Shown in pieces: positions 46,435 through 46,819 of a stretch of 64,000 bases of DNA. The first letter of the stretch is position 1. Each line of letters starts with the position of its first letter. A model generated the notes under the pieces. The model did no database searches and was not told where the DNA came from. It saw only the letters and a list, made by a program, of their open reading frames with translations. Source of the stretch: Pyrinomonadaceae bacterium (GTDB taxonomy: Bacteria; Acidobacteriota; Blastocatellia; Pyrinomonadales; Pyrinomonadaceae); assembly GCA_019694355.1 (NCBI GenBank), contig JAIBCB010000005.1, forward strand, positions 42,452 to 106,451. The letters are read 5' to 3'. The position numbers and the translations under genes were made by a program.

Positions 46435-46464
46435 TTGACAGCGATCGGCTGTTTGCGATAGCTT
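46435..46464 (+). promoter_or_regulatory. Candidate sigma-70 promoter of the metY leader
   Basis: TTGACA (46435-46440), an 18-nt spacer, then TAGCTT (46459-46464). The -35 is perfect and the -10 is weak. Confidence 0.3.
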
Positions 46465-46498
46465 GAATTCACTCGATGCGAAAGATCGAGATGTTCGT

Positions 46499-46573
46499 AT
46501 GAACAACGTAACGCTCAAACATAAATGTATGTGTTGTTGTCGCTGCCGCGACACAGCGCTTACGTTTGCTTGA
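46499..46573 (+). CDS. Candidate leader peptide sORF, 24 codons, poly-Cys (MNNVTLKHKCMCCCRCRDTALTFA)
   Basis: ATG 46499 to TGA 46571-46573, read by hand; it is too short for the ORF track. It has 5 Cys and 1 Met in 7 consecutive codons (46526-46546). It lies between the candidate promoter and a terminator upstream of metY-metX. I saw no clear SD. Confidence 0.4.
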   Translation: MNNVTLKHKCMCCCRCRDTALTFA

Positions 46574-46710
46574 GAGTTTACGGCCCGCTCAACGGGCAAT
46601 GAAAACTAAAGAAACGTGGCGATTTAAGGCAACTTGCTCCACGAAAAAAACTGCTAAAGCGTCTTAGGCGATCTCATGATTCGCCGAAAGAAAACGAGGA
46701 TCTAAGAGAA

Positions 46711-46743
46711 GCTCTCGTGCACTTTAGCACGAGGGCTTTTTTC
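46711..46743 (+). terminator. Intrinsic terminator inside the metY 5' leader (attenuator / expression platform)
   Basis: GCTCTCGTGC / GCACGAGGGC form a 10-bp stem (one G-U) with a 6-nt loop, followed by TTTTTT. It sits 77 nt upstream of the metY ATG. Confidence 0.7.
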
Positions 46744-46819
46744 GTTGTGCAAAAAGGAAGTTGCCGTGAAATAAGACAAGATCGGCCGCAGGCCGAAAGG
46801 AAATAGGAGAAACAAGAAA

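Follow-up and report, generated by a model that had tools for sequence, protein, structure and literature searches.

A SAM-II/SAM-V-type riboswitch candidate and an optional cysteine-codon reading frame in the metY-metX leader of a Pyrinomonadaceae bacterium

The metY and metX genes of a soil bacterium of the Pyrinomonadaceae (contig JAIBCB010000005.1) are preceded by a leader that contains a short open reading frame (sORF) with a run of cysteine (Cys) codons, several hairpins and a strong intrinsic terminator, which raises the question of what decides whether transcription proceeds into the two genes. An initial annotation of this 64,000-nt stretch of DNA, hereafter the window, proposed that ribosome stalling at the Cys and methionine (Met) codons controls read-through, and named as an alternative a likeness to the S-adenosylmethionine (SAM) riboswitches SAM-II and SAM-V. 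The 371-nt leader is more stable than its shuffled counterparts (z = -6.2). All coordinates are positions in the window, and the leader elements lie on the plus strand. We conclude that the leader is very probably a riboswitch with the SAM-II/SAM-V type of structure that turns transcription off in response to SAM; the best explanation overall, which we hold to be evenly poised between right and wrong, is that this riboswitch is preceded by a ribosome-sensing module.

A candidate SAM-II/SAM-V-type aptamer

The likeness offered as an alternative in the initial annotation gained ground from sub-threshold Rfam matches, a full set of pocket nucleotides and a conserved core. The elements of the aptamer are as follows:

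46615-46659, plus strand: candidate SAM-II/SAM-V-type aptamer, placed by sub-threshold Rfam match, pocket nucleotides and conservation
46615-46619 with 46639-46643, plus strand: P1, CGUGG paired with CCACG, 5 bp
46620-46625, plus strand: third strand, CGAUUU
46633-46637, plus strand: 5' strand of P2b, CUUGC
46644-46650, plus strand: A-rich L3, AAAAAAA, between P1 and the tail
46652-46659, plus strand: 3' strand of P2b and ligand-contact tail, UGCUAAAG

An Rfam scan of the whole window at gathering thresholds found no family. In a permissive scan of 46400-46850, two models aligned end-to-end with E ~0.01: RF01726 (SAM-II long loops) at 25.1 bits, against a gathering score of 44, and RF00521 (SAM_alpha) at 22.1 bits, against 36. 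The permissive scan gave no match to SAM-V (RF01826) at E up to 10, and its matches to PyrR, AniS and other families were dismissed as chance (E of at least 1).

In the SAM-V/SAM-II pocket, three U residues of the 5' third strand occupy the P2 major groove, the U-A/U-A/G-C/C-G pairs are broken by a bulged U with which the SAM adenine pairs, and the next A contacts the amino-acid end of SAM (PMC6061858). Every one of these nucleotides is present in the window: GAUUU at 46621-46625, UUGC at 46634-46637 and GC-U-AA-A at 46653-46658 (compared with PMC6061858). The same nucleotides are upper-case consensus positions in the Rfam alignments.

Conservation was assessed in two sets of sequences. A DNA pattern built from the aptamer core was searched in metagenome contigs and retrieved at least 120 soil contigs, in which the core is nearly invariant. 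Among 38 distinct sequences, the pocket nucleotides are unchanged in all 38, a figure that the search pattern partly enforces; 97.9% of P1 cells are paired, and the outer P1 pair occurs as C-G (31 times), U-G (twice), and A-U, G-C and G-U (once each). The other set comprises the leaders of MetY orthologues (80-100% identity), collected from genome contigs, metagenome matches and contig look-ups, which yielded 18 distinct Pyrinomonadaceae-type leaders; related leaders are designated by L numbers. All 18 of these leaders have both aptamer and terminator, as do more than 100 other contigs.

The P1 loop is short (19 nt) and is without a long P2a helix, which accounts for the low Rfam scores. Two long-loop siblings found with the same DNA pattern, L102 and L119, pass the RF00521 gathering score with 47 and 51 bits, and short- and long-loop forms therefore make up one continuum. 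Judged by its sequence, the aptamer is best named a short-loop SAM-II-type variant in a new phylum.

Terminator and expression platform

The aptamer is followed by a linker and by the strong terminator that had been annotated 77 nt before the metY ATG, which we recovered as an 11-pair stem (46710-46737) with a run of six T:

46662-46707, plus strand: linker, with hairpin GGCGAUCUCAUGAUUCGCC at 46667-46685 and ACGAGG at 46694-46699
46710-46742, plus strand: intrinsic terminator, from folds and conservation
46710-46720, plus strand: terminator 5' arm, AGCUCUCGUGC
46721-46726, plus strand: terminator loop, ACUUUA
46727-46737, plus strand: terminator 3' arm, GCACGAGGGCU
46737-46742, plus strand: U6, ending 77 nt upstream of the metY ATG (46820)

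The aptamer tail UGCUAAAG is an exact complement of CUUUAGCA (46722-46729), which comprises the terminator loop and the first 3 nt of the 3' arm. When G-U pairs are allowed, an 8/8 complement to the tail is found in 96 of 123 unique leaders, compared with 5 of 123 shuffled ones; its variants include CUUUGGCA, CUUUAGCA, CUUUGGCG and others, and in 83 of the leaders it ends 6-8 nt ahead of the T-run. The terminator stems vary among lineages while the loop sequence complementary to the tail stays constant, a pattern that would not be expected of an ordinary terminator loop.

Since equilibrium folding of the complete leader does not separate the states, nascent transcripts were folded instead. In these folds, the antiterminator helix between tail and loop has a probability of 0.94-0.98 in nine of nine leaders and is displaced only once 6-8 further nt have been made. 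A second antiterminator stem appears in the minimum free energy structure of the nascent transcript, where ACGAGG (46694-46699) pairs with CUCUCGU (46713-46718) in the terminator 5' arm; relatives retain the motif ACGA(A/G)(A/G). The main role of the terminator at 46710-46742 is to serve the aptamer at 46615-46659 as its expression platform.

According to the proposed mechanism, bound SAM would lock the tail in the P2b triple helix of an H-type pseudoknot, the terminator would form and metY-metX would remain untranscribed. With SAM absent, the free tail would pair with CUUUAGCA as it emerges, ACGAGG would pair with the terminator 5' arm, and the polymerase would clear the U-tract before the terminator hairpin nucleates. 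Because the equilibrium folds always hold the terminator, the switch is supported as a kinetic model only, and we infer its kinetic outcome from the modelled folds. Such a kinetic argument is usual for most transcriptional riboswitches.

The cysteine-codon sORF and its conservation

The sORF described in the initial annotation, together with its Cys-Met-Cys-Cys-Cys-Arg-Cys run and the small hairpin over the Cys codons, was found in place:

46499-46573, plus strand: leader sORF, MNNVTLKHKCMCCCRCRDTALTFA, 24 codons and the stop TGA at 46571-46573, from translation
46526-46546, plus strand: codon run UGU AUG UGU UGU UGU CGC UGC (Cys-Met-Cys-Cys-Cys-Arg-Cys), here called segment 1
46538-46553, plus strand: apex hairpin UGUCGC-UGCC-GCGACA, from folding

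Segment 1, with five Cys and one Met in seven codons, forms the 5' arm of a long hairpin in the sORF. At least five Cys in seven codons would be expected ~0.1 times in a random 64-kb window read in six frames, and ~4e-5 times at the coding Cys frequency of the window (0.69%). By this estimate the run in the window alone is suggestive; that it recurs in eight further related leaders argues that it is real. An ATG-initiated sORF with an in-frame Cys run sits at a matching position, 30-60 nt ahead of the aptamer, in 9 of the 18 distinct leaders:

Window: MNNVTLKHKCMCCCRCRDTALTFA
L201: MNRITLKHKCMCCCRCCDTALTFA
L203: MISISLKHKCMCCCRISGIAHTFA
L215: MLADIKQIKRMCCCRFCGIARR
L212: MNYFMQSYSCCCRD
L106: MNIIIQFHSCCCCIKCEPRLR
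L001: MNARCCRIIRVTLDAVG
L050: MSKQNLQINLNCCRVS
L216: MKKISSIICSMCCCFQS

In all nine, the run is in frame with both ATG and stop, while the lengths range from 14 to 24 codons and the flanks are divergent. The run itself takes the forms KCMCCCRC, MCCCRFC, SCCCR, SCCCCIKC, RCCR, NCCR and SMCCCF, and it alone is conserved, often with Met before it and Arg after it; a Met codon adjoins the run in five of the nine leaders. Synonymous TGT/TGC changes at Cys codons occur in L203 and L106, and L203 retains the apex hairpin through a G-U change (GUCGC-AUUA-GCGGC). A conserved Cys run, variable flanks and synonymous exchanges together read as the signature of a regulatory leader peptide. The sORF has no clear Shine-Dalgarno (SD) sequence, as had been noted earlier: its duplex reaches only -3.0 kcal/mol, compared with -7.3 kcal/mol for metY.

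The other nine leaders (L002, L147, L205, L207, L209, L210, L211, L213 and L214) lack the sORF; in them the same promoter is followed only by a small hairpin and UUGAAAA before the aptamer begins. Comparison of L002 with L216 reveals a clean insertion or deletion of ~88 nt that covers the whole module, with near-identical flanks on both sides; it was read from the raw sequences, the MAFFT alignment having misplaced the promoter. Thus the riboswitch is the core of the leader and the sORF an accessory. The initial annotation had held that a leader structure conserved without the sORF would point to a pure riboswitch. The alignment of metY leaders bears this out insofar as terminator and aptamer are present in 18 of 18 and the Cys-rich sORF in only 9, but the sORF is not noise, being positionally conserved in those nine.

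Proposed gating of the aptamer by the leader peptide

The route by which the sORF might influence the riboswitch is suggested by a segment that follows the Cys run:

46557-46567, plus strand: proposed anti-P1 segment ("segment 2"), CGCUUACGUUU, 3' arm of the long sORF hairpin

This segment complements AAACGUGGCG (46612-46621) over 10 pairs with one bulged U (RNAduplex -11.6 kcal/mol), and constrained folds of the free RNA show it paired to the Cys/Met codons. Corresponding pairs of anti-P1 and target are CGUCACGCU and AGCGUGGCG in L001, CACGCUU and AAGCGUG in L050, GCCACG and CGUGGC in L106, and CGCU-CGUUUG and CAAACG-U-GGCG in L216. RNAduplex energies range from -10.6 to -16.0 kcal/mol in the leaders with the sORF versus -3.3 to -9.4 kcal/mol in those without it, and shuffling gives p values of 0.002-0.15 for the duplex in eight leaders. 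In seven of nine leaders, the best complement in the whole upstream leader starts 13-18 nt past the last Cys of the run, a spacing that corresponds to the edge of the footprint of a stalled ribosome. For the window, the footprint of a ribosome that stalls on a Cys codon, whichever one, reaches 46556 at most and anti-P1 begins at 46557, while a ribosome at the stop codon covers anti-P1.

Stalling was simulated by masking, during folding, the footprint of a ribosome with its A site on the first Cys codon. Under this mask, the probability of P1 falls from 0.85-0.99 to 0.00-0.15 in seven of the nine leaders (window, L201, L203, L050, L106, L215 and L216), and in the window from ~0.98 to ~0. With the ribosome at the stop codon, it stays at 0.73-0.98 in eight of nine. 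The exceptions to the drop are one leader with a P1 probability of 0.00 even when unmasked and another that shifts only from 0.31 to 0.08; L001 forms the anti-P1 helix without any mask, and P1 returns there only when the ribosome is placed at the stop codon, while L212 gives a weak result. A shuffled segment produces the drop in 8-28% of trials per leader. Mutually exclusive 1:2, 2:3 and 3:4 pairings, selected by the position of the ribosome, were thus obtained in silico. As for the alternative folds that the initial annotation had envisaged around a stalled ribosome, the aptamer P1 is lost and the terminator is unchanged.

These folds point to a four-segment attenuator whose helix 3:4 would be the aptamer P1. 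As long as the sORF is untranslated, or the ribosome stands at the stop codon, anti-P1 would be sequestered or covered, the aptamer would fold and SAM would control termination. When Cys-tRNA or Met-tRNA is scarce, the ribosome would stall on 46526-46546 and melt the sORF hairpin; anti-P1, lying just outside the footprint, would then capture the P1 5' strand, the aptamer could not form, and the free tail would build the antiterminator, allowing read-through even with SAM present. The claim that stalling at Cys/Met codons governs read-through accordingly survives in altered form: it is plausible by way of the aptamer P1, and not as a direct effect on the terminator, to which the sORF has no conserved complementarity. 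The sORF would act via the riboswitch and not instead of it. The arrangement makes physiological sense, since MetY, a sulfhydrylase, catalyses the step at which sulfur is assimilated for Met as well as for Cys. That a Cys/Met-sensing leader peptide unfolds the SAM aptamer and so overrides SAM-dependent termination is, on these models, a matter on which we are evenly divided. A wider formulation, to which we incline slightly less, describes a modular two-input attenuator whose ~90-nt sORF unit is gained and lost among close relatives, and which would be part of a phylum-wide, hitherto undescribed habit of Acidobacteriota of placing Met/Cys-codon leader peptides on metY.

Alternative explanations

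A number of observations weigh against a SAM riboswitch gated by a leader peptide. On the side of the aptamer, only about half of the Rfam gathering scores is reached (25.1/44; 22.1/36); the inner P1 pairs are invariant, which limits covariation to one pair because the core is so extremely conserved; and SAM binding is deduced from the pocket sequence. In the platform, full-leader equilibrium folds keep the terminator under free, stalled and SAM-bound constraints alike, and the stems of antiterminator and terminator overlap by just 3 nt. The sORF module is missing in half of the close relatives and is hence dispensable; its SD duplex amounts to 0 to -4.4 kcal/mol in eight of nine leaders, the only SD-like GAG of the window sORF sits within a hairpin, and both translation of the sORF and stalling on it are presumed. 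Moreover, the nine sORF leaders represent perhaps five or six independent lineages, the anti-P1 complementarity of L212 is weak (shuffle p ~0.5), a second site in the window pairs equally well with the P1 5'-strand target, and the shuffle controls were mononucleotide shuffles.

One rival explanation is a plain SAM-II-type riboswitch in which the sORF stretch is an untranslated, structured 5' extension, for example a stabilising hairpin or a relic, with no sensing role, and the Cys frame a by-product of its UGU-rich arm. Aptamer and terminator are found in all relatives and the module is missing in 9 of 18 leaders, the SD is weak, the sORF region is a strong hairpin, and CACGCU and GCUUGAGG are conserved as nucleotides in differing reading frames. 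However, the UGY run keeps its frame with ATG and stop in nine of nine leaders despite variation in length and flanks, TGT/TGC changes retain Cys, and a Met codon stands by the run in five of nine. There would be no point in an anti-P1 segment that stays shut in a hairpin for good unless something opened the hairpin, the spacing of anti-P1 from the run fits a ribosome footprint, and related Terriglobales leaders carry clear Met/Cys leader peptides (see below). We regard the plain riboswitch as rather unlikely. The sORF might also be translated and act independently of the aptamer, either by protecting the transcript from Rho or RNases (polarity, stability) or as a functional small Cys-rich peptide. 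The conserved reading frame and Cys run would agree with this, as would a 5' hairpin and weak SD that suggest regulated initiation, yet neither peptide length nor sequence outside the run is conserved, which speaks against a functional peptide; the module always lies directly ahead of the aptamer and bears a P1 complement, and the intrinsic terminator already accounts for attenuation. Such an independent role is improbable.

Classical attenuation, in which the stalled ribosome would directly select between an antiterminator and the terminator at 46710-46742 and the SAM-II likeness would be incidental, could claim the Cys/Met codon run, the hairpin-rich leader, the strong terminator and a weak complementarity, seen by eye and in the window only, of UUGAGAGU (46569-46576) to GCUCUC in the terminator arm. 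Against it stand the 137 nt between stop codon and terminator, with a conserved aptamer in between; the presence of the same terminator, with its tail-complementary loop, in leaders without the sORF; complementarity between sORF and terminator that is not conserved (e.g. in L203); and stall simulations that alter the aptamer and not the terminator. Direct pairing of UUGAGAGU with GCUCUC was rejected as a mechanism, being limited to the window group, and classical attenuation as a whole is scarcely credible. The reading we prefer remains the SAM-II/SAM-V-type OFF riboswitch with a ribosome-sensing module ahead of it.

Promoter, further leader elements and downstream genes

The remaining features of the locus are the following:

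46435-46464, plus strand: promoter, -35 TTGACA (46435-46440), 18-nt spacer, -10 TAGCTT (46459-46464)
46472-46490, plus strand: 5'-terminal hairpin CUCGAU-GCGAAAG-AUCGAG, from predicted folds, with the only SD-like GAG of the sORF in its 3' arm
46583-46597, plus strand: hairpin GCCCG-CUCAA-CGGGC, followed by UGAAAAC at 46600-46606
46758-46765, plus strand: AAGUUGCC, conserved, downstream of the terminator
46805-46809, plus strand: metY ribosome-binding site AGGAG
46820-48130, plus strand: metY
48144-49277, plus strand: metX, directly after metY; Abhydrolase_1 match, metX-like alpha/beta hydrolase

The TTGACA promoter candidate of the initial annotation is backed by its relatives, which keep TTGACA-N17/18-TAG(C/G)TT at the equivalent place; transcription is estimated to start near 46470. 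A consensus promoter scan called no site at the metY leader, where TAGCTT matches TATAAT at 3/6 positions, and a terminator scan listed only the minus-strand image of the terminator hairpin. Because these generic scans missed both elements, promoter and terminator were set by conservation and folding.

The three further hairpins annotated between sORF and terminator were found at 46583-46597, 46615-46643 (the aptamer P1) and 46667-46685. The hairpin at 46583-46597 belongs to the basic leader, since sORF-less relatives have it too, and covarying versions (UUCCG/CGGAA, UCCCG/CGGGA and GUCGACGG/CCGUCGGC) stand ahead of UUGAAAA in relatives; it may serve as a pause or spacer element. Counterparts of the 5'-terminal hairpin (CUCGGG/CCCGAG) occur in L201 and L203.

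The octamer AAGUUGCC (46758-46765), located 16 nt past the terminator U-tract, does not vary among 14 related leaders and is perfectly complementary to the aptamer loop GGCAACUU (46628-46635), which takes in part of P2b. Covariation between the two was sought in the related leaders and not found; L050 keeps AAGUUGCC despite an altered loop. Lying beyond the termination point, the octamer may open up the aptamer once read-through mRNA has been made, or add a second layer of control.

An SDR gene lies upstream of the metY leader. The metY product matches Pfam Cys_Met_Meta_PP (1e-141), shares 100% identity with a protein from a metagenome-assembled genome (MAG) of Pyrinomonadaceae (Acidobacteriota), and bears the NCBI name O-acetylhomoserine aminocarboxypropyltransferase/cysteine synthase.

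Related leaders and other loci

The leader organization also recurs outside the simple metY context. L082 has two tandem aptamer-terminator units in one leader (about 380-560), L212 has one aptamer before metY and a second before another Cys_Met_Meta_PP gene (at 2934), and L099 has two copies on opposite strands. With tandem aptamers known in L082 and L212, the sORF region of the window was considered as a degenerate second aptamer; this was rejected, as the region contains neither GAUUU nor GCUAAAG. In the case of L106 (aptamer at 768-813), the complete SDR-promoter-sORF-aptamer-terminator arrangement drives not metY but another Cys/Met pyridoxal phosphate enzyme, which starts with MTKRSIETELVHAGERR; the whole leader, including the Cys-run sORF, has therefore been reused on another sulfur-amino-acid gene. 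Two more distant leaders, L190 (-130 to -25 from the aptamer) and L127 (-168 to -33), have CCC-run reading frames before the aptamer, which include LLARCCCNHNAGASD and GPAGCCCSRQGP, respectively. In L190, UCACAA after the run matches the variant P1 5' strand UUGUGG of that leader, with tighter spacing; the module may have arisen here independently, or this may be a copy of it that has diverged.

L069 and L070, from Heliomicrobium/Heliobacteriaceae MAGs labelled Firmicutes, combine an Acidobacteria-type MetY (74-76% identity) with the same aptamer type, which suggests mis-binning or horizontal transfer; L069 has no U-tract terminator downstream of its aptamer. L011 and L027 (about 970-1950) contain pairs of matches to Acido-Lenti-1 RNA (RF01687) on opposite strands, ~1-2 kb upstream of metY.

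A separate group comprises 57 metY leaders of Terriglobales/Acidobacteriaceae (L003-L080) with a conserved sORF that ends in GIAVMAMCMCMACGPVRAALERQMR, termed the MAMCMCM family. These sORFs lie ~110-360 nt upstream of metY (e.g. in L027 and L037). In most of the 57, a GATACT box resembling a -10 element ends ~7 nt before the ATG of the sORF, and the transcript is probably leaderless; in 49 of 57, a T-run taken as a terminator starts ~50-60 nt past the stop codon. The SAM-II core was not found in the 57 leaders, which also contain no Rfam family at gathering thresholds, and in stall simulations of ten Terriglobales leaders the terminator dominates at equilibrium. No description of the MAMCMCM leader peptide was found in Rfam or the literature, and the group looks like an undescribed family of Met/Cys attenuators.

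Significance

The candidate described here would bring Acidobacteriota, a phylum dominant in soil, into the range of the SAM-II/V aptamer type. As the short-loop form lies below the Rfam thresholds, annotation pipelines miss the examples on at least 120 soil contigs. Its legible platform offers a testable mechanism for intrinsic termination driven by SAM-II-type pseudoknots. If the proposed gating is true, the leader would be a natural case of a leader peptide acting on a riboswitch aptamer, a rare two-signal design that integrates tRNA charging (Cys/Met) and the end-product cofactor SAM in one leader, and the module would be an evolvable plug-in, with close relatives that exist with and without it. 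The MAMCMCM peptides of Terriglobales would add methionine/cysteine to the short list of classically attenuated amino acids.

Comparison with known systems

Like SAM-II (RF00521, RF01726) and SAM-V, the window has a 5-bp P1, a GAUUU third strand, an A-rich L3, a GCUAAAG tail and a P2b of UUGC:GC(U)AA, including the bulged U by which those classes pair with the SAM adenine. It lies upstream of metY/metX, and an intrinsic terminator comes after it, which is the usual arrangement of SAM-II (PMC2258182; PMC6061858). It differs in its much shorter P1 loop (19 nt) without an obvious long P2a helix, which leaves it below both Rfam gathering scores, and in its host: the published distribution of SAM-II covers Alpha-, Beta- and Gammaproteobacteria, Bacteroidetes and marine metagenomes (PMC2258182; PMC2864571), while the window comes from Acidobacteriota (Pyrinomonadaceae). 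A survey in 2007 stated that the control mechanisms of SAM-II were not yet experimentally established (PMC2258182), and a paper of 2022 could predict no riboswitch-driven antiterminator for S. meliloti metA (PMC9373788); in the window, the antiterminator is directly legible as the tail paired with the terminator loop and 3' arm. Our literature searches returned no account of a SAM riboswitch on which a Cys/Met leader peptide acts, of SAM-II in Acidobacteria or of a metY leader peptide.

The combination of a ligand-sensing RNA with a codon-run sORF is shared with the mgtA leader of Salmonella, where a Mg2+ riboswitch is joined to the proline-codon sORF mgtL and the rate at which the sORF is translated selects one of the alternative stem-loops and thereby determines whether the gene is transcribed (PMC6460261). 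Ligand, amino acid and mode of termination differ from those of the window, in which the downstream arm of the sORF is proposed to unfold the aptamer P1 and the module is optional, occurring in half of the close relatives. Consecutive Cys codons in a short ORF are also known from mycobacteria, where polycysteine sORFs lie upstream of sulfur-metabolism genes and a stalled ribosome is proposed to remodel the RNA according to Cys supply; these sORFs are leaderless and act on translation, through exposure of a masked ribosome-binding site (Canestrari et al., bioRxiv 10.1101/834739). The window sORF has a ~30-nt leader, precedes a riboswitch and would act on transcription termination, and there is no sequence homology between the two. 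With the MAMCMCM family it shares the phylum, the regulation of metY and a short leader ORF that contains a run of Met/Cys codons; that family, unlike the window leader, has no SAM-II core and is apparently leaderless.

In the classical attenuators (trp, his, leu, thr), where the ribosome stands determines which of the segments 1:2, 2:3 and 3:4 pair. The window leader follows the same four-segment logic, in that the codons pair with segment 2, which has segment 3 as its alternative partner; in contrast to the classical systems, the residues are Cys and Met, the helix 3:4 would be the aptamer P1 and not the terminator, and the terminator would lie two steps further downstream.

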